The notes below the pieces were generated by a model. The model saw nothing but the letters and a program-made list of their open reading frames with translations, did not search any database and had not been told where the DNA came from. From a virus (Duplodnaviria; Heunggongvirae; Uroviricota; Caudoviricetes), in the IMG/VR virus record IMGVR_UViG_2585427772_000010: 23,516 bases of DNA, one strand, 5' to 3'. The position numbers and the translations under genes are program-made. Shown here one piece after another: positions 1-23,516 of the stretch. Positions within the stretch are counted from its first letter, which is position 1; each line of letters starts with the position of its first letter.

Positions 1-1011
1 TTATAACGTCACTCCGCCTTTTAGTGGATTCAGAGCGACGGCATTTTGCAGATAGTCAGGCGCAAGGTGCGCATAGGCCATCGTCTGCTGAATGCTCGCA
101 TGTCCCAGAATCTGTTGCAGTGCGATTATATTGCCCCCATTCATCATGAAATGGCTTGCGAATGTATGCCGCAGGATGTGGGTTGCCTGATTGGGTGGTA
201 TATCAGGTTTCACTCTGCGTAAAATCCCGCAAAATTTCTCATAATCAACTTTGAATAATTTGGCGCTGGCCTCCTCTTTAACTTTTTTCTCCAGTTCCTC
301 AGAAATCGGCACGGTTCGCTTTTTACCGTTTTTGGTTTTCAGGAAGGTAACCCTGCAATTTGTAATCTGTGCTGGTTTTAGCGTGGCAACTTCCGTCCAT
401 CTTCCTCCAGTGCTCAGACATAAAAGCGCGACAAGTAAGTCATCACCAGCCAAAACATTTAACAGTTTTTCGATTTCTGCTTTTTCCAGGAACGTCATTT
501 CAGGGTTGGCTTCCGCCAGTGGCGGCAGTCCGTGAATTGGGTGTTGCCCGGAAAATTCATCCAATTGAATTAATTTTGTGAACATGCCGGATAATCGGTA
601 CATGTCACGGTTTATCGTTGCGGCACTGATACCATCACGTAGTCGCATGGAACGATAATCCATCAAAGCCCTTTTGCTCATCCTGCTCACTGGTATATCA
701 CCTATGCCGCTGATGGTTTTGAGTAGATGATTAAACTCTTTTGTTCCATGCTCGTGGTTTTGCCCGTGATATTTCCACCAGATGTCCAGCAACTCACTCA
801 AAGTCCGGCGGTCTGCTCGCTGGCCTCCCCATTCTTTCTGACTGGCATTGGCGATTGTGTATCGCTCAAATGCTAGTGCTTCAGCTTTTCTTTCGAATTT
901 CCTGCGGATGCGTTTTCCGTCGCGGCCGCGAGGTCTAATGTCCACTTCATAGCGACCATCATCGAGCTTCTTAATTGCCATAAGAAAGCCCTCCGGCGCT
1001 GTATTCACCAT
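1..1011 (-). CDS. int: Tyrosine integrase (P2 Int-like)
   Basis: 336-aa ORF; C-terminal catalytic region with HxLRHTFAS and LGHASIQQTMAYAHL motifs typical of phage tyrosine recombinases; position next to the C repressor as in P2. Confidence 0.9.
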   Translation of the reverse strand: MVNTAPEGFLMAIKKLDDGRYEVDIRPRGRDGKRIRRKFERKAEALAFERYTIANASQKEWGGQRADRRTLSELLDIWWKYHGQNHEHGTKEFNHLLKTISGIGDIPVSRMSKRALMDYRSMRLRDGISAATINRDMYRLSGMFTKLIQLDEFSGQHPIHGLPPLAEANPEMTFLEKAEIEKLLNVLAGDDLLVALLCLSTGGRWTEVATLKPAQITNCRVTFLKTKNGKKRTVPISEELEKKVKEEASAKLFKVDYEKFCGILRRVKPDIPPNQATHILRHTFASHFMMNGGNIIALQQILGHASIQQTMAYAHLAPDYLQNAVALNPLKGGVTL

Positions 1012-5778: not shown

Positions 5779-6107
5779 ACGTCGCCAGTTGCGAAAATTA
5801 TTTACAGGGGGCAGCGTTAAGCATCTAAAGATCTTGTTCTATGATTAGAATGTTTCCTCGTTGCACTCTCGTATAGTTATTTAATGGGAAGATGTACTCT
5901 ATATGTTGTGTTTTGGTGATAAATGAAGCCAAAGGAAGGAGATTTTGCTTGATTGATGGGCGCTCTTTGCTATACACCTTGTATTGAGAAGGAGAAGTAA
6001 TCAAGGATTAAGCTGGCTTTTGTCAAAAATCTGAAAAGCTTTTTTGACTGAATACGATAGCGAGTTGTACTATTTGCGCCCTCAAAAGTAACCGGCGGCT
6101 GGGTAAA

Positions 6108-6482
6108 ATGGGGAAGCAAGGCAAAGGCAAAGGCAACAAAAATCAGGTTAAGGTTACGTGGGCTCAGGCGTGGCGGGATGTAATGATAAGAGCCATGTCT
6201 AATGGTCAGTTGATACCTATTACCATCAGTATTATTTTAATGATTGCTGCATGGAGGTTACCAAAAACAGACTTGTCCAATTTAGCCTTCTCTATTGTTG
6301 ATGGCTTTAAGGAGCATTCCTTGGTTGGTTGGGCTATCTCGGTAATAGTGGGTTTGGCTTGGTCTGCACATGCGCGAATCATGAGGCGCTGTTTTAGTTC
6401 CGAGGCACAGAGAATCGGTAACGAGAAAACAAAGTATCAACAAAGACAGACCACTCAAGCCTTGGGTACAAGTGATAAATAG
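6108..6482 (+). CDS. Small membrane protein with two predicted TM helices (cargo gene 1)
   Basis: 124-aa ORF; lysine-rich N-terminus, hydrophobic segments LIPITISIILMIAAW and LVGWAISVIVGLAWSA; AT-rich; start uncertain (alternative ATGs at 6183 and 6195). Confidence 0.5.
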   Translation: MGKQGKGKGNKNQVKVTWAQAWRDVMIRAMSNGQLIPITISIILMIAAWRLPKTDLSNLAFSIVDGFKEHSLVGWAISVIVGLAWSAHARIMRRCFSSEAQRIGNEKTKYQQRQTTQALGTSDK

Positions 6483-6502
6483 TTGTTTATTTAGGAGTTA
6501 TT

Positions 6503-7060
6503 ATGCTGACAGTGCTGTTTTATGTGCTGTTGGGTTTAGGCGCAGCACACTTCATTTACGAGCGAATCATTTTGCCGTCCATCCGACTTCATTATAGAAA
6601 CCAATTGTTTGCGCTTCGTGATGTCGCTAGGAGGAAAATCATTGATGGAGGTTCCGATACTTCCATGCAAGCGGCAACACTTGTGCATGACTCATTGAAT
6701 AACGCTATCAATAGATTGCATTTACTCACGTTGCCAAACAAATTTCGTGCTCAAAAGCGTATGGCAGAAAACCATGCAATAAGGCAGAAAATTCGGCGTG
6801 AGATAGATGTTTTCAAACGCTGTGATGATAGAGAAGTTGTTGATGTACTGTTTAAATCCGGTCGGATACTTGAAAATGTACTGTTATTCAATAGCTTAAT
6901 GTTATTGCTTTACATGTTTCCATTTGTCCTTGCTGTATGGTTCTGTGTTAGGGTCATAAAGACAGCAAGTAGTTTAGTACAGTGGGTCAAAGGAAGAGAT
7001 TTAGAGGAAGCTATAATGCTGCTTCCTGATACTCAGGTTGAAAAGGTTGTATACGCATAA
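6503..7060 (+). CDS. Membrane protein with N- and C-terminal hydrophobic helices (cargo gene 2)
   Basis: 185-aa ORF; AGGAG 6 nt upstream of the ATG; 20-nt gap from gene 1 (operon); hydrophobic N-terminus (LTVLFYVLLGLGAAHFIY) and C-proximal helix (LLFNSLMLLLYMFPFVLAVWFCV); followed by a terminator. Confidence 0.65.
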   Translation: MLTVLFYVLLGLGAAHFIYERIILPSIRLHYRNQLFALRDVARRKIIDGGSDTSMQAATLVHDSLNNAINRLHLLTLPNKFRAQKRMAENHAIRQKIRREIDVFKRCDDREVVDVLFKSGRILENVLLFNSLMLLLYMFPFVLAVWFCVRVIKTASSLVQWVKGRDLEEAIMLLPDTQVEKVVYA

Positions 7061-7089
7061 AAATCACCCCTTAGGGGGTGATTTTTTTA
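7061..7089 (+). terminator. Rho-independent terminator
   Basis: ATCACCCC-TTAG-GGGGTGAT hairpin followed by a 7-T run immediately after the 6503-7060 stop. Confidence 0.7.
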
Positions 7090-7299
7090 CATGACTTTTG
7101 ATTAGCTGACATTGTAAATCCGCATGTATCAGATGCATTGTTTTGCATGTGGAAATGGGTGTTTTCACTGCCAGCTATCGCTACATGTAGCAAAAACACG
7201 GGCTTAATAAGAAATCATTCTGCCATAAGGCATAACTTCCCCGCGTGCTCAGGTATTGACGTCATAGATATGGATCTTTTTTAATCAAGGTATGGTATT

Positions 7300-8247
7300 A
7301 TGAAGATATTTATTAGTTGGTCAGGTCAGGACAGCCTGGAGATAGCAAAAGTATTACGGGATTGGATACCGAATGTTATTCAAGTAGCTGAGCCGTACGT
7401 ATCAGCGGAAGATATTGATAAAGGCACTCGCTGGGCGACTGATATATCAAAGGAACTTGATGACTCTTCTTATGGGATTATTTGCCTTACAAAAAATAAT
7501 ATTAATGCACCGTGGATAAATTTTGAGGCGGGGGCTTTAGGTAAAAAGGTTGATAAGAGCCGGGTTAGTCCTTTCTTGTTTAAAATTAAACCATCTGAGA
7601 TAACAGGCCCAATATTACAATTCCAGTATACTCGTTCGGATGATAAGAACGATATTTTGAAGTTGATGTTGTCAATAAATAATCAAGCAGGATTTTTGAC
7701 TGAAGAACGCTTAACTAAAGCTTTCGAGCAATGGTGGCCAAGTTTAGAGCGTGAGTTAGATAACATTCAAGATATTAACCCTGTAGATAAAGATTCCACT
7801 AAAAAAACAAAAGGTGATTCGACTTCTGAGATACAAAATCTTTCCAAAATTGTTGAAAGTTTGCTGGATATTAGCCGAACAAATCACCAATTATTGCGTG
7901 ATCCAGCATCATTATTGCCAGAAGAATATGTTAGCAAAATAATAAACAGGGAAGGGCGTAAAGAAACTGTTTTAAAAATTGTAGCTTCTGATTTATTATC
8001 CATGCATCATTCACTAATTCGTGTAAAAAGAAGATTTATTCGTCGTGGTATTGATGAAACATCTAGGAGCGAGTTAATTGAATCATTAAATAAAATGATA
8101 ATGGATTGTTCTAGAGTAATCGCTCACTTAGATAATTATTGTGGGGCTTCATCAAACAATATGTTCAATAGTGCGCTTAGATTGCGGACCAGAAATTTAA
8201 TTGACATGATGGATGAGGAGGATGCAGAACGGGATGAAATGGAATAA
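7300..8247 (+). CDS. TIR-like domain protein with uncharacterised helical C-terminal half (cargo gene 3)
   Basis: 315-aa ORF; N-terminal ~130 aa carries the bacterial TIR-like pattern (KIFISWSGQD ... GIICLTKNN ... PWINFEAG) with a glutamate at the position of the catalytic Glu of TIR NADases; C-terminal ~170 aa is charged/helical and unrecognised. The domain call is from motif reading only. Confidence 0.6.
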   Translation: MKIFISWSGQDSLEIAKVLRDWIPNVIQVAEPYVSAEDIDKGTRWATDISKELDDSSYGIICLTKNNINAPWINFEAGALGKKVDKSRVSPFLFKIKPSEITGPILQFQYTRSDDKNDILKLMLSINNQAGFLTEERLTKAFEQWWPSLERELDNIQDINPVDKDSTKKTKGDSTSEIQNLSKIVESLLDISRTNHQLLRDPASLLPEEYVSKIINREGRKETVLKIVASDLLSMHHSLIRVKRRFIRRGIDETSRSELIESLNKMIMDCSRVIAHLDNYCGASSNNMFNSALRLRTRNLIDMMDEEDAERDEME

Positions 8248-8791
8248 TCAATTTTGACTAATCATAAATAATTTTGCATATATAAACTTATAATGCCGCA
8301 GCCGCTATTTTTCAGCGGCTGTATATCGCTTATAATGGGTATGTTATTTTTATTTTGATAAAATCATTAAAATTGTCGATGTTATATGAATGCACATGTA
8401 TTATTAATGTTAGAAGATTATGCCTGCTTACGGCTATTGTGCTGAATTCAACTATGAACGCATCAGTATTAAAATCGTTCCATGAAATGTTCTTCGTCTA
8501 CAGCAGATGATGGGCAACGAAAAAATGACGCTGAGTGAGTTGGTCGGGGAGAATTGTTAGAGGTATTTATGGAGTGGTTTAATAATATCGGTCAATCCTG
8601 AGTTGCAGCATCACATAGACGATAGGGAATCTCTCCAGTCGTTCTGGAATGGCAGCGTTGAACAACAAGCACAGCGAGGCGTTAGATGCCCATCAGATTG
8701 ACACAGAGGGTTTATGAATCGCTGGGATTTACTTAGTTTGAAAAATAATATATTTATATGTTTTTGTATTGTGTTTGTTAAGGAGTTTGGA

Positions 8792-8998
8792 TTGAAAAGA
8801 AAACTGATTTGTGTTATGGCTTTTTGGGGGGCGTTGCTGGCTGGTTGTAATGAGAGTAATAAAAAAGAAGTTGAGGGTTGTATTGAAAGAGGTGTCCAAT
8901 ATTTTATAGAGATTGGTTCTTACCCTAAATTAAGTGATGGGCGTGATGCTGTAAAAGTTGCTACTGAACGTTGTAATAGAACAATAACGGCTTTCTGA
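8792..8998 (+). CDS. Small predicted lipoprotein (cargo gene 4)
   Basis: Track ORF 8714-8998; preferred start is the in-frame TTG at 8792, preceded by AAGGAG (8780-8785), giving a classical lipoprotein signal peptide (KRK, hydrophobic core, lipobox LLAG-C); about 49-aa mature protein with three further Cys. Confidence 0.5.
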   Translation: MKRKLICVMAFWGALLAGCNESNKKEVEGCIERGVQYFIEIGSYPKLSDGRDAVKVATERCNRTITAF

Positions 8999-9000
8999 TA

Positions 9001-9918
9001 ATGGATTATACGAGCTATATAATAGGACAGCTTCAGGTTGAGGATATTATTGATGCAATTAAAGGCGTTAATAATACTAATGTCATAAAAGATTATGTGC
9101 TGCCTGTAGTATTACCAATTATATCTTCTGTGCTGAGTTACTTTATTGCAACTAGGTTGTTTTATCGGCAGGAGGACCTTAAAGCACAAAGAAGAAAGGT
9201 AAGCGTTGTAAATAAATGTATTTATGACTACTTTTCTGCAATGACAACGTTGTTGCAAATTAAAGGGAATTATTATGGTGGGGTAAGTATAAGTGAAAAT
9301 CCTATCGAGAGGGCTTTAGCTTTTCCTGTTGTGGTTTTTTCTGGTGCTCCTCTATCATCAGATTTAAGTGAGTTGGCCTGTATATTGAGTCAAAAGGGAG
9401 TAGGGAATAATAGAGAGCCAGCAAAGACTACTAACTGGGGGGATGCTTTTGCTGTTAGTGATATAGCAAGAAGGTTTAACAGCCTATTGGCTGCATTAAA
9501 TGTTAGGAATGATTTTGATGACACCTATAGAGGAATGATTATTGAATCAACAGGTTCACCTTTGCCTACGATGCGTTTTAAAAATGATGATATTGTTAAT
9601 GCTATAGGTAGTAATAAGGCAGCTTATTACATTGATATTACTGAGCAAATAATGATTATGATAGATGTTTTGTTGCTTGATATTAATCTGTTGCTCAAAG
9701 AGTTGCCATTGTATGCTGAATCGCTGTTTGACAAAAGAGTAATGCAAGAAGATTCAGGGATTCTTAAATTCAATGATTTGCACGAACGTTTTCCTCTACT
9801 TATGAAACCTGTAACGCCACCTTCGATTAAACTCATGTCTGATTATTTGGGGTACAGTGAAGATGAGATCTTACGACGCTATCCATACCCGTTCTTTAAT
9901 ATGCATGATTGTGAATGA
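9001..9918 (+). CDS. Uncharacterised 305-aa protein with one N-proximal TM helix (cargo gene 5)
   Basis: ATG 2 nt after the lipoprotein stop (coupled); hydrophobic segment VLPVVLPIISSVLSYFIATRLF; AT-rich; no family recognised. Confidence 0.7.
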   Translation: MDYTSYIIGQLQVEDIIDAIKGVNNTNVIKDYVLPVVLPIISSVLSYFIATRLFYRQEDLKAQRRKVSVVNKCIYDYFSAMTTLLQIKGNYYGGVSISENPIERALAFPVVVFSGAPLSSDLSELACILSQKGVGNNREPAKTTNWGDAFAVSDIARRFNSLLAALNVRNDFDDTYRGMIIESTGSPLPTMRFKNDDIVNAIGSNKAAYYIDITEQIMIMIDVLLLDINLLLKELPLYAESLFDKRVMQEDSGILKFNDLHERFPLLMKPVTPPSIKLMSDYLGYSEDEILRRYPYPFFNMHDCE

Positions 9919-10021
9919 ATGTGCATATGTCAGAAGCCGTTTTTATTGTCAGTTATCGTCAGTGCTGGCGCGCTCTTGGAGTGTTCATGCAACTGCATTA
10001 AAACCGCCCCACGAAGCGGGC

Positions 10022-10040
10022 GGGCGAGGCGGGGAAAGCA
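10022..10040. other. cos site (19-nt cohesive-end sequence of P2-type phages)
   Basis: Exact GGCGAGGCGGGGAAAGCAC, which I recall as the P2/P4 cohesive end, in the expected position between the old/tin locus and Q. Confidence 0.6.
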
Positions 10041-11233: not shown

Positions 11234-11795
11234 CAGTAAAACTCCAGAATGGTGGATGTCAGCGGGGTGCTGATACCGGCGGTGAGTGGCTCATTTAACA
11301 GGGCGTGCATGGTCGCCCAGGCGAGGTCGGCGTGGCTGGCTTCCTCGCTACGGCTGGCCTCATAGGTGGCGCTGCGTCCGCTGCTGGTCATGGTCTTGCG
11401 GATAGCCATGAACGAGCTGGTGATGTCGGTGGCGCTGCGTCCGCTGCTGGTCATGGTCTTGCGGATAGCCATGAACGAGCTGGTGATGTCGGTGGCGCTG
11501 ACGTCATATTCCAGACAGCCACGGCGGATGACGTCTTTTGCCTTGAGCACCATTGCGGTTTTCATTTCCGGCGTGTAGCGGATATCGCGTGCGGCGGGAT
11601 AGAACGAGCGCACGAGCTGGAACACGCCGACACCGAGGCCGGTGGCATCAATTCCGATGTATTCGACGTTGTATTTTTCGGTGAGTTTGCGGATGGATTC
11701 CGCCTGAGTGGCAAAGTCCATGCCTTTCCACTGGTGACGCTCAAGTATTCTGAATTTACCTCCGGCCACCACCGGCGGTGCCAGCACCACGCATC
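11233..11795 (-). pseudogene. P: Terminase large subunit P, C-terminal fragment only, carrying an in-frame 63-bp tandem duplication
   Basis: Only ~185 codons remain of a gene that is ~590 codons in P2; the reading frame runs into the K fragment on the other strand; the upstream promoter and N-terminal part are absent. Confidence 0.8.
11368..11493. repeat. Perfect 63-bp tandem duplication (2 copies) inside the P remnant
   Basis: 11368-11430 and 11431-11493 are identical; the 10-mer GGTGGCGCTG precedes each copy and a partial third GGCGCTG follows; encodes a duplicated 21-aa segment (SATDITSSFMAIRKTMTSSGR). Confidence 0.9.
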
Positions 11796-11797
11796 CG

Positions 11798-12250
11798 GCG
11801 CTGGCCGTGTCCGAAGGGACGGCGAATCATCCGCTGACGAAAAACCGGGGCTATGACGTGATAGTCACCGGACTGGACGGAAAGCCGGAAATTTTCACCG
11901 ACTACAGTGACCACCCGTTCGCACATGGTCGACCGGCGAAGGTGTTTAACCGTCGCGGTGAAAAATCCACGGCCTCCGGTCGCTATCAGCAGCTTTACCT
12001 GTTCTGGCCGCATTACCGCAAACAGCTTGCCCTGCCGGATTTCAGTCCGTTGTCACAGGACAGGCTCGCCATTCAGTTGATCCGCGAACGCGGTGCACTG
12101 GATGACATCCGGGCGGGACGCATTGAGCGCGCCATTTCACGCTGTCGCAATATCTGGGCGTCCCTGCCGGGTGCCGGTTACGGTCAGCGTGAGCATCCAC
12201 TGGAAAAACTGGTCACCGTCTGGCGTACCGCCGGCGGCGTACCGGCTTAA
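11798..12250 (+). pseudogene. K: Endolysin K (lambda R-like lytic transglycosylase), 5'-truncated
   Basis: Translation (SEGTANHPLTKNRGYDVIV ... IWASLPGAGYGQ) aligns with lambda R from about its residue 17 onward; the catalytic-Glu motif SEGT is retained but the N-terminus, RBS and upstream holin gene are missing. Confidence 0.75.
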
Positions 12251-13248: not shown

Positions 13249-13678
13249 TGCCGTCACGGTGCTGAAAACTAACCCCGATATGCTGCGGATATTCGTGGAT
13301 AACGGGAGTATTGCCTCCACACTGGCGGCGTCGTTGTCATTCGAAAAGCGTTACACGCTCAATGTCATTGTGACCGACTTTACCGGTGATTTTGACCTGC
13401 TCATCGTGCCGGTGCTGGCGTGGCTGCGGGAAAATCAGCCCGACATCATGACCACCGACGAAGGCCAGAAAAAGGGCTTCACGTTTTATGCAGACATCAA
13501 CAATGACAGCAGCTTTGATATCAGTATCAGCCTGATGCTGACCGAGCGCACGCTGGTCAGTGAGGTTGACGGTGCGCTGCATGTGAAGAATATCCCGGAA
13601 CCTCCGCCGCCGGAGCCAGTCAATCGCCCGATGGAGCTTTATATCAATGGTGAACTGGTGAGCAAGTGGGATGAATGA
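13211..13678 (+). CDS. R: Tail completion protein R
   Basis: 155-aa ORF, same length and position as P2 R. Confidence 0.85.
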   Translation: MLKPDSLRRALTDAVTVLKTNPDMLRIFVDNGSIASTLAASLSFEKRYTLNVIVTDFTGDFDLLIVPVLAWLRENQPDIMTTDEGQKKGFTFYADINNDSSFDISISLMLTERTLVSEVDGALHVKNIPEPPPPEPVNRPMELYINGELVSKWDE

Positions 13679-14123
13679 GTTTAAGCGTTTTGAAGACCGA
13701 CTGACCGGACTGATTGAATCGCTGTCACCGTCTGGGCGTCGGCGACTGAGTGCAGAACTGGCGAAACGTCTGCGGCAGAGTCAGCAGCGTCGGGTGATGG
13801 CACAGAAAGCTCCGGACGGCACACCCTACGCACCACGCCAGCAGCAGAGCGCCAGAAAAAAGACCGGTCGCGTTAAGCGAAAAATGTTTGCGAAACTTAT
13901 CACCAGTCGTTTTTTGCATATCCGCGCCAGCCCTGAACAGGCATCAATGGAGTTTTACGGCGGGAAGTCACCGAAAATCGCCAGTGTGCATCAGTTCGGT
14001 CTGTCGGAAGAAACCCGGAAAGACGGTAAGAAAATTGATTATCCGGCGCGTCCTCTGCTCGGCTTTACCGGTGAGGATGTGCAGATGATTGAAGAGATTA
14101 TCCTGGCTCACCTTGAGCGTTAG
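13671..14123 (+). CDS. S: Tail completion protein S
   Basis: 150-aa ORF overlapping the R stop, same length and position as P2 S. Confidence 0.85.
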   Translation: MNEFKRFEDRLTGLIESLSPSGRRRLSAELAKRLRQSQQRRVMAQKAPDGTPYAPRQQQSARKKTGRVKRKMFAKLITSRFLHIRASPEQASMEFYGGKSPKIASVHQFGLSEETRKDGKKIDYPARPLLGFTGEDVQMIEEIILAHLER

Positions 14124-14194
14124 TTTTATCCAGACAGAGGCTGATGCGCAATTAAACATTGAGCGGCCATGCTGGTCGCTCAATGTTTAGAGGT

Positions 14195-14980
14195 TTATGA
14201 GTGATTTTTATTTGATGCTTTGTATTCTAAAACCTTCTTATTGGCGTAAAAGAATTTTGTATATGACAGGAATATAACCAGACCTGAAGTGAAATAGACG
14301 AGGGATAGTATTAATAATGCTTTTTTGCGACTGTTATTATCTTTAATCTCCAGGCTTAACCATTCGGAGTCCTCCTCGTTTAGCTGTAAGAGCTTATTGC
14401 AGGCGATTTCAGGAAGTGTGTCTTTTATAAATACGTTTTGCAGTCTCTTGCAATCGGCAAGGCTATAAGTTTTATTAAATTCAACTGCTTTATTTTTGAA
14501 GGATAAAAGAACTTTGTCACTATAAACATAGTACATCATGTTTTTATATGGTATGCCTATGGCATCCCTTACTATAACGGATTGTTCGTTGTGTATGTAA
14601 CATGCGAGGAGAATGTAAAAAATACTGGCCAGAATTACAATTATTGTTTTAATTATGTGTGGTGGTTTTGTTATGTCACCCCAGATGCGAGTAAGGAAAA
14701 AATACGATGTTTTTAGTTTTCCATCAATCAGTCCCTGCTGTATCATTCTCACATTTTCAATGCCTGATACATTGATTCCGTTAATTATTTTAAATAGTTG
14801 AATGTCGCGCCACTCGCGGTCAAGTCTTTTTAATTTTTTGTCTGAATATCCAAAATTGAAATAATGTGCAATAAGCCTCATAAGGTTACTTTTACCAAAG
14901 CTAAAAAATGCTAATACTGCAAAGCTACAAAGGAAAAAAACGATTAGCCCCCACACATTAGTCACATTATAGCTGACCAT
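14195..14980 (-). CDS. AT-rich multi-pass membrane protein at the orf30 position, antisense to the late genes
   Basis: 261-aa ORF; AAGGAGAG 5 nt upstream of the ATG on the minus strand; about three hydrophobic helices; composition visibly more AT-rich than flanking S and V. Confidence 0.7.
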   Translation of the reverse strand: MVSYNVTNVWGLIVFFLCSFAVLAFFSFGKSNLMRLIAHYFNFGYSDKKLKRLDREWRDIQLFKIINGINVSGIENVRMIQQGLIDGKLKTSYFFLTRIWGDITKPPHIIKTIIVILASIFYILLACYIHNEQSVIVRDAIGIPYKNMMYYVYSDKVLLSFKNKAVEFNKTYSLADCKRLQNVFIKDTLPEIACNKLLQLNEEDSEWLSLEIKDNNSRKKALLILSLVYFTSGLVIFLSYTKFFYANKKVLEYKASNKNHS

Positions 14981-14989
14981 TACGCTCTC

Positions 14990-15060
14990 CTTGAATGTTG
15001 TCTGGTAGTTCTACAAATGAATCCAGATAGCATAACTTTTATATATTGTGCAATCTCACA
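14990..15060 (+). promoter_or_regulatory. Candidate late promoter upstream of V (P_V)
   Basis: Imperfect dyad TTGTCTGGTAGTTCTACAA about 50-60 bp upstream of V and an AT-rich -10-like TATATAT; P2 has an Ogr-dependent late promoter at this position. Spacing does not exactly match the TGT-N12-ACA consensus as I recall it. Confidence 0.3.
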
Positions 15061-15063
15061 TGC

Positions 15064-15699
15064 ATGAACACTCTCGCAAATATTCAGGAACTCGCGCGCG
15101 CACTGCGCAACATGATTCGCACCGGCATTATCGTCGAAACCGACCTTAACGCCGGTCGCTGCCGCGTGCAGACCGGCGGCATGTGCACCGACTGGCTTCA
15201 GTGGCTGACCCATCGCGCCGGTCGTTCGCGCACATGGTGGGCACCTTCCGTGGGGGAACAGGTGCTGATTCTGTCCGTGGGCGGTGAACTCGACACGGCG
15301 TTTGTTCTGCCGGGGATTTATTCCGGCGATAATCCCGCGCCGTCTGCGTCGGCGGATGCCCTGCATATCCGTTTCCCTGACGGGGCGGTGATTGAGTATG
15401 AACCCGAAACCAGTGCGCTCACGGTAAGCGGAATTAAAACGGCCAGCGTGACGGCTTCCGGTTCTGTTACTGCCACTGTGCCGGTGGTCATGGTGAAAGC
15501 GTCAACCCGCATCACCCTGGACACACCGGAGGTGGTCTGCACCAACAGGCTGATTACCGGCACGCTGGAAGTGCAGAAGGGCGGGACGATGCGCGGCAAC
15601 ATTGAACACACCGGCGGTGAACTCTCATCAAACGGTAAGGTACTGCATACCCATAAACACCCCGGCGACAGCGGCGGCACAACCGGGAGTCCTCTATGA
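15064..15699 (+). CDS. V: Baseplate spike/assembly protein V
   Basis: Start at internal ATG 15064 (MNTLANIQ...) of track ORF 15046-15699; 211 aa, as in P2 V. Confidence 0.85.
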   Translation: MNTLANIQELARALRNMIRTGIIVETDLNAGRCRVQTGGMCTDWLQWLTHRAGRSRTWWAPSVGEQVLILSVGGELDTAFVLPGIYSGDNPAPSASADALHIRFPDGAVIEYEPETSALTVSGIKTASVTASGSVTATVPVVMVKASTRITLDTPEVVCTNRLITGTLEVQKGGTMRGNIEHTGGELSSNGKVLHTHKHPGDSGGTTGSPL

Positions 15700-20287: not shown

Positions 20288-20881
20288 ATGTTTACTAAGC
20301 GACGATTAAAAAATATTAACTGGGAGGCAAGTTCAGTGATTCTTGCTATGGTTCTCTTTGTTGGAAATATATTTTATACAAATCATCGTGATGATATAAG
20401 CATGGAGGCTGAGAGGGACAGTATCAGAACAATGTTTGCATATGAAATCGCTAATAACCATCGCGCTCTCACTTTTCTTGATAAAACGAGACATATTGGC
20501 TTTGACGAAAATTCGGAGCATTTTGTTGGCGAGCCTTTTGCCATTAATGTCAAATCATTAGGGGGACCTCGCTTACAGATTGCATTAAACCAGACTGATA
20601 AAGTGTTTAAATCCTACTTCGGCGAATTAAGTAAGCTTGATAAAGAGGATGTTACTCTTCTTATGGACTATTACCATGAGCAAAGCATCCTGCTGGAGCG
20701 TGTAAAATCTACGTTACAGAAGATGAAAAGTGGTAATGATATTAAAGTTGATATTGATGGTTGCTTATTAGAAGAACACTTCATGAATGAGCTTAATCTT
20801 TCTAATATTTTGCTTAAACGCTATAGCTATTTATTATCACAACACGCTAAGGAACATAAAACAAAAGATTTACATAATTGA
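20288..20881 (+). CDS. AT-rich membrane-anchored protein at the Z/fun position
   Basis: 197-aa ORF; AAGGTG 5 nt upstream of the ATG; single N-terminal TM helix (SSVILAMVLFVGNIFY); flanked by AT-rich intergenic DNA between G and the FI remnant. Confidence 0.65.
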   Translation: MFTKRRLKNINWEASSVILAMVLFVGNIFYTNHRDDISMEAERDSIRTMFAYEIANNHRALTFLDKTRHIGFDENSEHFVGEPFAINVKSLGGPRLQIALNQTDKVFKSYFGELSKLDKEDVTLLMDYYHEQSILLERVKSTLQKMKSGNDIKVDIDGCLLEEHFMNELNLSNILLKRYSYLLSQHAKEHKTKDLHN

Positions 20882-21212: not shown

Positions 21213-21326
21213 ATGAGTGACTATCATCACGGCGTGCAGGTGCTGGAGATTAACGACGGCACCCGCGTCATTTCCACCGTATCCACAGCCATTGTCGGCA
21301 TGGTCTGCACGGCTAGCCTCCCGTAA
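21213..21326 (+). pseudogene. FI: Tail sheath FI, 5' stub (37 codons then stop)
   Basis: [35 protein letters not shown] matches the start of the P2 sheath protein as I recall it, then leaves frame and hits TAA at 21324-21326. Confidence 0.7.
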
Positions 21327-22532: not shown

Positions 22533-22613
22533 ATCCTCAATTTGCCTGCTGCTTAATGCATTGCAGATGATTTGCTTCCGTTATACTACCGTCAGTTGAT
22601 AGCGGGAGTATTT

Positions 22614-23516
22614 ATGAATCAATCTTATGGACGGCTGGTCAGTCGGGCGGCGATTGCTGCGACGGCGATGGCTTCGCTGCTATTGCTGATTAAAATTTTT
22701 GCATGGTGGTATACCGGGTCGGTGAGTATTCTCGCCGCGCTGGTGGATTCGCTGGTGGATATCGGCGCGTCGTTGACGAATTTACTGGTGGTGCGATATT
22801 CCCTGCAACCTGCCGACGATAATCACTCGTTTGGTCACGGTAAAGCTGAGTCCCTCGCGGCGCTGGCGCAAAGTATGTTTATCTCCGGTTCGGCACTATT
22901 CCTGTTTTTGACGGGTATTCAACATCTGGTATCTCCAACACCGATGACAGATCCAGGCGTCGGGGTTATCGTGACAATTGTGGCGCTAATTTGTACGATT
23001 ATCCTTGTCTCGTTTCAGCGTTGGGTGGTGCGCCGGACGCAAAGCCAGGCGGTGCGGGCTGATATGCTACATTACCAGTCTGATGTTATGATGAACGGCG
23101 CAATTCTGCTGGCGCTGGGGTTGTCCTGGTACGGCTGGCATCGCGCCGATGCTCTGTTTGCATTGGGGATCGGCATCTATATTTTATATAGCGCGTTACG
23201 CATGGGATATGAGGCGGTACAGTCATTACTGGATCGCGCATTGCCTGATGAGGAACGGCAAGAAATTATTGATATCGTGACTTCCTGGCCGGGTGTTAGC
23301 GGCGCTCACGATCTTCGCACGCGGCAGTCAGGGCCGACCCGCTTTATTCAGATTCATTTGGAAATGGAAGACTCTCTGCCTTTGGTTCAGGCACATATGG
23401 TGGCGGATCAGGTAGAGCAGGCTATTTTACGGCGTTTTCCGGGATCGGATGTGATTATCCATCAGGACCCCTGTTCCGTCGTACCCAGGGAGGGTAAACG
23501 GTCTATGCTTTCATAA
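22614..23516 (+). CDS. fieF: Cation-diffusion-facilitator iron/zinc efflux transporter FieF (YiiP), host gene
   Basis: Start at internal ATG 22614 ([29 protein letters not shown]...); 300 aa; sequence as I recall it for E. coli FieF; higher GC, multi-TM transporter plus C-terminal cytoplasmic domain. Confidence 0.85.

Follow-up and report, generated by a model that had tools for sequence, protein, structure and literature searches.

Our analysis showed that the open reading frame on the minus strand at positions 14195..14980 of the window, by which we mean the whole stretch of 23,516 nucleotides of viral DNA analysed here (IMG/VR record IMGVR_UViG_2585427772_000010), is, judged by identity and position, the orthologue of orf30 of bacteriophage P2. 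It further indicates that orf30 belongs to a family of predicted three-pass inner-membrane proteins that appears to be an old resident of one slot, between genes S and V, in P2-like phages. The gene itself is a known, annotated ORF of a model phage and is not new. What is new here is the residence of a whole family between S and V, with allele similarity uncoupled from that of the flanking genes, the purifying selection seen on both soluble loops of the protein together with a pair of cysteines in loop 2 of every member, and the presence of an intact gene in defective prophages and at a fixed, prophage-free locus in Enterobacter. The role that we tentatively favour for the protein is a putative exclusion of other phages at the level of the cell envelope.

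In the ORF listing of the window, orf30 runs from an ATG at 14978-14980 to a TAA stop at 14195-14197 and encodes 261 amino acids. A Shine-Dalgarno sequence, AAGGAG, lies 6 nt before the ATG (14987..14992, minus strand) and is invariant in the seven alleles described below. The neighbouring genes, gpS (13671-14123) and gpV (15064-15699), are both on the plus strand. The GC content of the whole ORF is 0.34 and its GC3 is 0.36, compared to 0.53-0.62 (about 0.58) in the 300-nt windows that flank it. The preliminary description of this locus, as an antisense, conspicuously AT-rich frame of 261 codons with a strong ribosome binding site, wedged between S and V and predicted to span the membrane about three times, thus agrees with the coordinates, the base composition and the hydropathy profile given below. 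That description had left open whether the gene is P2 orf30, a question that the comparison with P2 settles in favour of orthology. Between 13600 and 15700, the DNA of the window is 97.9% identical to that of P2 (AF063097), and the protein is 98.9% identical to P2 Orf30 (AAD03281.1 / NP_046770.1) across all 261 residues, with three amino acid differences. The position between S and V, the antisense orientation, the terminator and the pV control region are identical in the two, P2 coordinates being converted to those of the window with an offset of +4756. The gene had also been described as transcribed against the late operon; its antisense orientation stands, but the operon is part of a defective prophage with two large deletions. 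Compared to phage P2_AC1, the first, of about 5.3 kb, takes out O, N, M, L, X and Y together with most of P and the start of K, and the second, of about 5.4 kb, runs from FI through most of D; the capsid genes and most of the tail-shaft genes are lost, and the right end of the prophage abuts fieF.

A word-indexed search for relatives of orf30 recovered only five clusters, and an exhaustive phmmer search of 1.84 billion representatives recovered 35, about twenty of which are full-length (~250 aa, 22-34% identity). Overall, the homologues span 21-39% identity, and length, the three helices and the Cys pair are kept. We fetched the genomic contexts of the homologues and mapped the P2 proteins onto them. 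Of 22 viral or prophage loci, 20 have a family member in the S-V slot, where it is divergent from V and runs against the late genes; in the two exceptions (L016 and L017), the homologue lies beyond R. The GC content of the family members in the diverged viral loci is 0.30-0.36, versus 0.51-0.62 in their flanks. Over 17 S-V loci, the median pairwise identity is 29% for the orf30 family, 71% for V and 74% for J. The identity between orf30-family alleles has a rank correlation of only 0.16 (rho, p 0.07) with that between the V proteins of the same loci, against a rho of 0.73 for J versus V. These observations suggest that the family has long occupied one slot in P2-like phages, and that its deeply diverged alleles have been shuffled independently of their neighbours. 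A recent, one-off insertion into P2 was ruled out, since the family occupies the S-V slot across diverged phages. Earlier comparative papers recorded a 786-bp ORF between S and V in P2 that is absent from W-phi and L-413C, as well as different genes between S and V in other P2-like phages, and the S-V position has been named beside the TO and Z regions as a site of foreign genes in these phages.

The gene is not rare. Of 5426 complete E. coli genomes, 464 (8.6%) carry it, E. coli B among them; all the copies are chromosomal, and 461 of the 464 are full length. In the same set, the P2-type S gene was located 1798 times, in 1572 genomes, and orf30 adjoins about 27% of these places (482). In IMG/VR, 79 junctions were compared whose S gene is nearly identical; 50 of them are empty and 21 carry orf30. 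Another antisense, AT-rich gene, whose product of ~357-389 aa has two hydrophobic helices at its C-terminal end, is present at five of the 79, an antisense gene for a soluble protein of ~268 aa at two, and a 253-bp spacer at one. Neither Pfam nor PADLOC gave a match for this alternative cargo (the 357-389 aa membrane proteins, the ~268 aa soluble protein and a 264 aa protein from Serratia). Being unannotated, it offers no guilt by association for orf30.

The preliminary view of orf30 as an accessory gene with no assigned function is upheld on both counts. On the first, the P2 record (AF063097) annotates the gene as "nonessential", and both the occupancy of about 27% in E. coli and the 50 empty IMG/VR junctions point the same way. 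On the second, orf30 is named "hypothetical protein" in NCBI, UniRef, JGI and ENA, comparative papers that name it call its function unknown, and our literature search found no publication giving it a function and no transcript data. The literature on P2 hotspots and defence, in the parts that we could consult, does not name orf30 or the S-V slot as a defence locus. Homology and structure searches were similarly sparing. In PHROGs, the window protein matches phrog_2407 over positions 1-261 of 261 (E 2.7e-147), a family that is annotated "unknown function" and includes all 23 aligned family members; no annotated PHROG family was matched. The Pfam scan of the window protein gave no match at E up to 1, and the NCBIfam scans gave nothing useful. 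PADLOC-DB 2.0 defence models gave 0 matches to the window protein and, for the 23 relatives, only three single-member matches at chance level (E 0.007 or worse). A profile search against PDB sequences found no relative of the family, and no fold match to the orf30 models was found among the PDB structures and BFVD relatives sought. The one faint link from the Pfam and NCBIfam scans of the 23 relatives, which otherwise yielded nothing usable, is to DUF6216 (PF19723), with weak matches in 9 of the 23 and a best E of 8.7e-7; the window protein itself falls below the threshold of this Pfam family. The members of DUF6216 are bacterial membrane proteins of similar length to those of the orf30 family, and a relationship between the two, at best distant, is possible. 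DUF6216 itself gives no hint of a function, and the one paper that we found names it once in passing.

The orf30 product is predicted, from its sequence and from structural models, to be an inner-membrane protein with three passes. Three hydrophobic 19-mers (Kyte-Doolittle >2) lie at residues ~9-29, 108-130 and 220-240 and coincide with long helices in two AlphaFold2 models, the second of which was built on the 23-sequence alignment (pLDDT 83, pTM 0.68). The two models agree on a helix at 6-40, a helical domain at 48-94, a helix at 109-133, strands at 140-173 followed by short helices, and a helix at 202-260. All of the following segments are encoded on the minus strand. Residues 1-8, predicted to be periplasmic, contain almost no K or R across the 23 family members, and are followed by TM1 (residues 9-29, 14894..14956). 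Loop 1 (residues 30-107, 14660..14893), predicted to form a cytoplasmic helical domain, has a mean net charge of +5.2 over the 23 members and the highest column conservation of the family. It contains the best conserved motif, D-x-Q-L-F-[KR]-x-x-N-G-[IV]-N-V ... D-A ... G, and the invariant or near-invariant residues Q61, G68, N70, D76 and G87. TM2 (residues 108-130, 14591..14659) leads into loop 2 (residues 131-219, 14324..14590), a predicted periplasmic region of four beta-strands and short helices with an about neutral net charge. Loop 2 contains exactly two cysteines in 23 of 23 members (C177 and C194 in the window protein) and is less conserved in the family alignment than the predicted cytoplasmic loop 1. 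TM3 (residues 220-240, 14261..14323) is followed by a basic C-terminal tail (residues 241-261, 14198..14260), predicted to be cytoplasmic, with near-invariant N247 and K254. The positive-inside rule, together with the cysteine pair, a typical trait of periplasmic domains, leads us to infer a topology with the N-terminus out, loop 1 in the cytoplasm, loop 2 in the periplasm and the C-terminus in, and with a probable C177-C194 disulfide in loop 2. The window protein has the three hydrophobic helices, the loop-1 motif and the loop-2 Cys pair, features that were derived from the family alignment.

Selection was measured on seven alleles (those of the window, P2, two "Yersinia" P2-type phages and three Escherichia), all of 261 codons. 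They diverge by up to 20% at the amino acid level with no indels or stops, and their dN/dS is 0.26-0.61; that of R, S, V and W in the comparison set is 0-0.23. Split by region, dN/dS amounts to 0.33 (loop 1), 0.27 (loop 2) and 0.36 (tail). In TM1 and TM3 it is about 1, with changes at few sites that swap one hydrophobic residue for another. By this measure both soluble loops are under purifying selection. The frame is thus more than a chance ORF, given these ratios, the lack of indels and stops, the full-length copies in E. coli and the homologues with as little as 21% identity; a pseudogene is likewise ruled out by selection and conservation.

The gene also persists where the phage has been lost. 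In the deleted prophage of the window, the protein differs from that of P2 at only three residues, and in E. coli B, where the prophage is deleted from the portal gene to S, the allele is intact. A Serratia homologue is found between an ASCH-domain gene and ecotin; at one Serratia locus a gpR fragment and remnants of terminase and portal genes lie beside the homologue, and at another it stands between host genes with no phage genes left. The Enterobacter homologue stands on the chromosome, in synteny and with no prophage around it, between a gene for an ECF sigma factor and one for a chemoreceptor. The flanking regions are 93.5-94.8% identical between two species, and the gene has a dN/dS of 0.18; this copy is represented in Enterobacter asburiae and its relatives by a cluster of 72 members. 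Intact copies in dead prophages and at prophage-free loci imply a function that is exerted without the phage structural genes and is worth keeping to the cell, and a host-level role for orf30 is therefore likely on these genomic grounds. A structural phage protein was ruled out, the gene being nonessential, missing in most relatives and kept in the absence of structural genes.

As potential roles, the preliminary description had put forward lysogenic conversion and phage exclusion. What the role might be is suggested by several properties taken together. The predicted location in the inner membrane, a periplasmic domain that is constrained yet comparatively variable, the divergence and shuffling of alleles in the manner of conflict genes and the presence/absence polymorphism of the gene lead us to favour, tentatively and at less than even confidence, an inner-membrane protein that excludes other phages at the envelope. 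Precedent is provided by P2 itself, whose three characterised accessory genes, old, tin and fun(Z), are all described, in the parts of the literature consulted, as excluding other phages. Like orf30, they are nonessential, low-GC, horizontally exchanged cargo at a fixed slot. In such a scheme, the prophage or its remnant would express the orf30 protein, which would act at the envelope against other phages. The more variable periplasmic domain would engage a partner lodged in the inner membrane, or passing through it, in the course of infection, be it part of the incoming phage or a host channel that this phage exploits, and productive genome entry would be blocked, an action of the superinfection-exclusion type. 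The deep allele classes may then correspond to different specificities. It is conceivable, although we hold this wider view with somewhat more reserve, that the orf30 family constitutes a new class of single-gene inner-membrane anti-phage determinant and the S-V junction an overlooked third cargo slot with shuffled specificity alleles, the gene having later been domesticated in Enterobacter and Serratia. If exclusion or defence proves to be the role of orf30, bacterial immunity would gain a structurally new family of membrane proteins and the P2 'defence platform' a third cargo slot, and the survival of orf30 beyond its prophage would have an explanation. If the role is another, orf30 would still encode an envelope protein, derived from prophages and widespread in E. 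coli from the clinic and the laboratory. The pattern of the family (one slot, diverged alleles, a Cys-pair domain and domesticated copies) makes the question of its function directly testable.

The comparison with known exclusion proteins outside P2 shows resemblance of layout only. Neither old, tin and fun(Z) nor the defence proteins of the P2 hotspots were matched in the PADLOC scan of the orf30 family. The published analyses of P2 hotspots, as far as they were accessible, describe the A-Q, Z/fun and tail-cI slots and not S-V, and the S-V cargo is unlike that of the hotspots in consisting mostly of deeply diverged alleles of one family rather than of unrelated systems. An analogy can be drawn with SieA of P22, where a temperate enterobacterial phage likewise encodes a small inner-membrane protein, of several passes, on the opposite strand to the late genes, in this case beside genes for ejection proteins that enter the envelope. 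The sieA gene has a promoter of its own. SieA is, however, 164 aa long compared to 261 aa for the orf30 product and has no counterpart of the periplasmic Cys-pair domain, and hhalign of the 23-member profile against it gave a probability of 0.4%, i.e. no homology. The analogy that favours exclusion is thus one of gene and protein layout. Virulent (P2 vir) and heteroimmune derivatives of P2 plate on P2 lysogens, which makes a strong self-exclusion of P2 by orf30 unlikely, and the exclusion phenotypes classically seen in P2 lysogens have been mapped to old, tin and fun.

The host-level role could also be unrelated to phages, with lysogenic conversion altering the physiology of the envelope (stress tolerance, transport, signalling or colonisation) to the direct benefit of the bacterium. 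In its favour, the syntenic Enterobacter copy is stable, evolves under the low dN/dS noted above close to genes for an ECF sigma factor and a chemoreceptor, and is shared by a 72-member cluster, the Serratia copies stand between host genes, and the gene is carried by 8.6% of complete E. coli genomes. The extreme divergence of the alleles and their shuffling independently of the flanks are, on the other hand, more typical of conflict genes, the near-exclusive tie of the family to one slot in P2-like phages argues for a selection that is related to phages, and the Pfam and NCBIfam scans revealed no signature of an enzyme or a transporter. We consider conversion of this kind unlikely.

A second possibility is that orf30 encodes a membrane effector of abortive infection, whose cytoplasmic loop would sense the infection and whose helices would oligomerise to depolarise or permeabilise the inner membrane, leaving the infected cell killed or arrested, with no block to entry. 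Many single-gene abortive infection proteins are membrane proteins. The cytoplasmic loop is the best conserved part of the family, as would be expected of a surface for sensing or for an effector action. The gene also stands alone as an autonomous unit and is kept without a functional phage, and the arms-race-like divergence of the alleles would fit as well. The searches nevertheless gave no PADLOC match to abortive infection or other defence models and none to RexB of lambda (hhalign probability 0.2%). No conserved partner gene, such as a rexA-like partner, was found for the family in any context examined, nor was an antitoxin gene. An effector of this type would moreover have no obvious use for a periplasmic domain, with its inferred disulfide, that is under purifying selection. 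This reading appears to us decidedly unlikely, and exclusion at the envelope, in which the periplasmic domain would have a direct part, remains the one that we prefer.

The DNA that surrounds orf30 bears on a third alternative, in which the gene would serve the phage's own cycle (genome entry or exit, the timing of lysis, or maturation of the tail or baseplate) or the cassette would be mainly regulatory DNA. In the P2-type phage fiAA91-ss, in which the S-V slot is empty, an unrelated spacer of 66 bp stands where the module would be. Homology between this phage and the window ends at 14125, 2 nt past the stop codon of S, and restarts exactly at the ATG of V at 15064, indicating that the exchangeable unit is the whole AT-rich module of 938 bp (14126..15063), made up of a hairpin, orf30 and a control region. 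The perfect hairpin (14152..14190) ends four bases beyond the stop codon of orf30 and corresponds to the putative rho-independent terminator of the O operon annotated in P2 (P2 9397-9433, equivalent to 14153-14189 here). RNA folding gave -28.4 kcal/mol for the plus strand and -21.6 kcal/mol for the minus strand, with a z of about -5; as it folds on both strands, the hairpin can serve the convergent transcripts of S and orf30. An Rfam scan of 13900-15300 produced only sub-threshold matches, which lie on the hairpin. On the other side, the 83 bp between the ATG codons of orf30 and V (14981..15063) form a divergent control region with the P2-annotated binding site of the activator (Ogr) of pV (14995-15022, mapped from P2 10239-10266). 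This region is 99% conserved among the seven alleles whose proteins differ by up to 20%. The promoter of orf30 must lie in this region or inside V. A sigma-70 consensus scan found no site upstream of orf30, and reading the 83 bp by eye gave only weak candidates with 3-4 of 6 matches per hexamer, none of which we put forward; AT-rich DNA such as that of orf30 could be subject to silencing. An exact TGT-N12-ACA activator dyad was sought in the control regions of the diverged loci and had no match, the window included.

The presence in the module of the hairpin terminator, the annotated activator site and the pV region, the high conservation of the 83 bp and the position of the family, almost always directly upstream of V and divergent from it, could thus be taken to mean that the cassette serves the phage. 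Against this, P2 orf30 is recorded as nonessential, about 73% of close P2-type relatives do without it, the 66-bp spacer standing in its place, the gene is intact where capsid and tail genes are deleted or no phage genes remain, and the purifying selection acts on the protein and not on the DNA alone. A role confined to the phage's own cycle or to regulation is improbable in the light of these observations. The module can be likened to the moron cassettes, a class of units inside late operons that consist of a promoter, a gene and a terminator; for orf30, a promoter of its own is presumed. The gene is dispensable, deviates in base composition, has its own terminator in a late-gene region and is absent from close relatives, and we regard orf30 as an autonomous single-gene accessory ('moron') cassette, a term that designates a functional class and not a sequence family. 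HK97 gp15 and other prophage morons are similar in being extra dispensable genes between tail genes, with their own terminator and a deviant base composition. HK97 gp15 differs from the orf30 product in its length (62 aa versus 261 aa) and in being encoded on the same strand as the late genes, and hhalign against it gave a probability of 0.5%.

Finally, orf30 might be an AT-rich passenger, in decay or selfish, that serves no function at present. Such a reading would account for the low GC content, the lack of an annotated function and the failure to find a sigma-70 site upstream, but it is very hard to reconcile with the 461 of 464 E. coli copies that are full length, the seven alleles free of indels and stops, the dN/dS well below 1 in both loops and the distant homologues that keep the length, the helices and the Cys pair.

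The junction between gpS and gpV, where the window carries orf30, the antisense, AT-rich membrane-protein gene orthologous to P2 orf30, also accommodates other cargo. Among E. coli-type P2 phages, two further single-gene cassettes share this slot, both of them antisense and with a GC content of about 0.34. The product of the first (locus L044, with a gap after S of 1271 bp) is a protein of about 357-389 aa with a pair of hydrophobic helices at its C-terminus, whereas that of the second (loci L051 and L060, 1043 bp) is soluble, has about 268 aa and includes an R-N-I-L-T-H stretch; neither protein has a match in Pfam or PADLOC. In the 'empty' P2-type phages, the slot consists of a 66-bp spacer which, in fiAA91-ss (L025, 725-790), is unrelated to the region of the V operon promoter, pV, in P2 and contains a GC-rich hairpin (GCCGCCGG...CCGGCGGC) directly ahead of the V start.

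A Serratia liquefaciens prophage (L006, 7737-8879), and likewise L012, carries a second low-GC gene between the orf30 homologue and S, which lies on the strand of the late genes and encodes a 264-aa protein with a hydrophobic segment at its N-terminus. It is adjoined by an 88-aa ORF resembling a duplicated 5' fragment of gpV, and the presence of these two elements side by side suggests stacking of cassettes, or their exchange, through recombination within the start of V. Two P2-like contigs that are more distant have their orf30-family gene beyond R (L016, 5683-6465; L017, 5495-6277) rather than between S and V, and the S-V gap is filled by about 1.5 kb of other sequence. Across the loci with diverged orf30 alleles (L006-L019 and L106-L117), the similarity to the respective P2 protein is far lower for gpS (38-56%) than for R (51-83%), V (mostly 63-86%) and J (54-81%). 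During such exchanges, the gene adjoining the cassette may be carried along.

The window holds a defective prophage with two deletions relative to phage P2_AC1. The first, of about 5.3 kb, has its junction near position 11800 (region 11428-11803) and removes most of the terminase gene P, together with O, N, M, L, X, Y and the start of K; the second, of about 5.4 kb, has its junction near 21315 (about 21314-21317) and removes FI, FII, E, T, U and most of D. Both junctions are absent from all complete E. coli genomes searched (n=5426). The remaining fragment of P matches in two BLAST pieces whose overlap is 78 bases on the phage side but only 14 in the window (11428-11441), a difference that may reflect a local duplication of about 64 bp. 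At the left end, the integrase gene is cut by the start of the window (ORF 1..1011, minus strand). The right flank (22540-23516) corresponds to the host gene fieF, with 100% identity to many E. coli genomes, which indicates that the prophage is integrated beside this gene.

Two further cargo regions of this prophage lie between the replication gene A and cos (about 5779-10022) and at the Z/fun position, where a 197-aa ORF is found (20288-20881); in P2_AC1, every corresponding gene of both regions carries a hypothetical annotation. In E. coli B, the defective P2-like prophage (L118, 4010-7699, B-LamR) has an 'ABC-three component system' in the slot that separates gene A from the portal remnant, and a glycosyltransferase downstream of the tail-fibre gene. 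Its orf30 allele, WP_000490543.1, is still intact.
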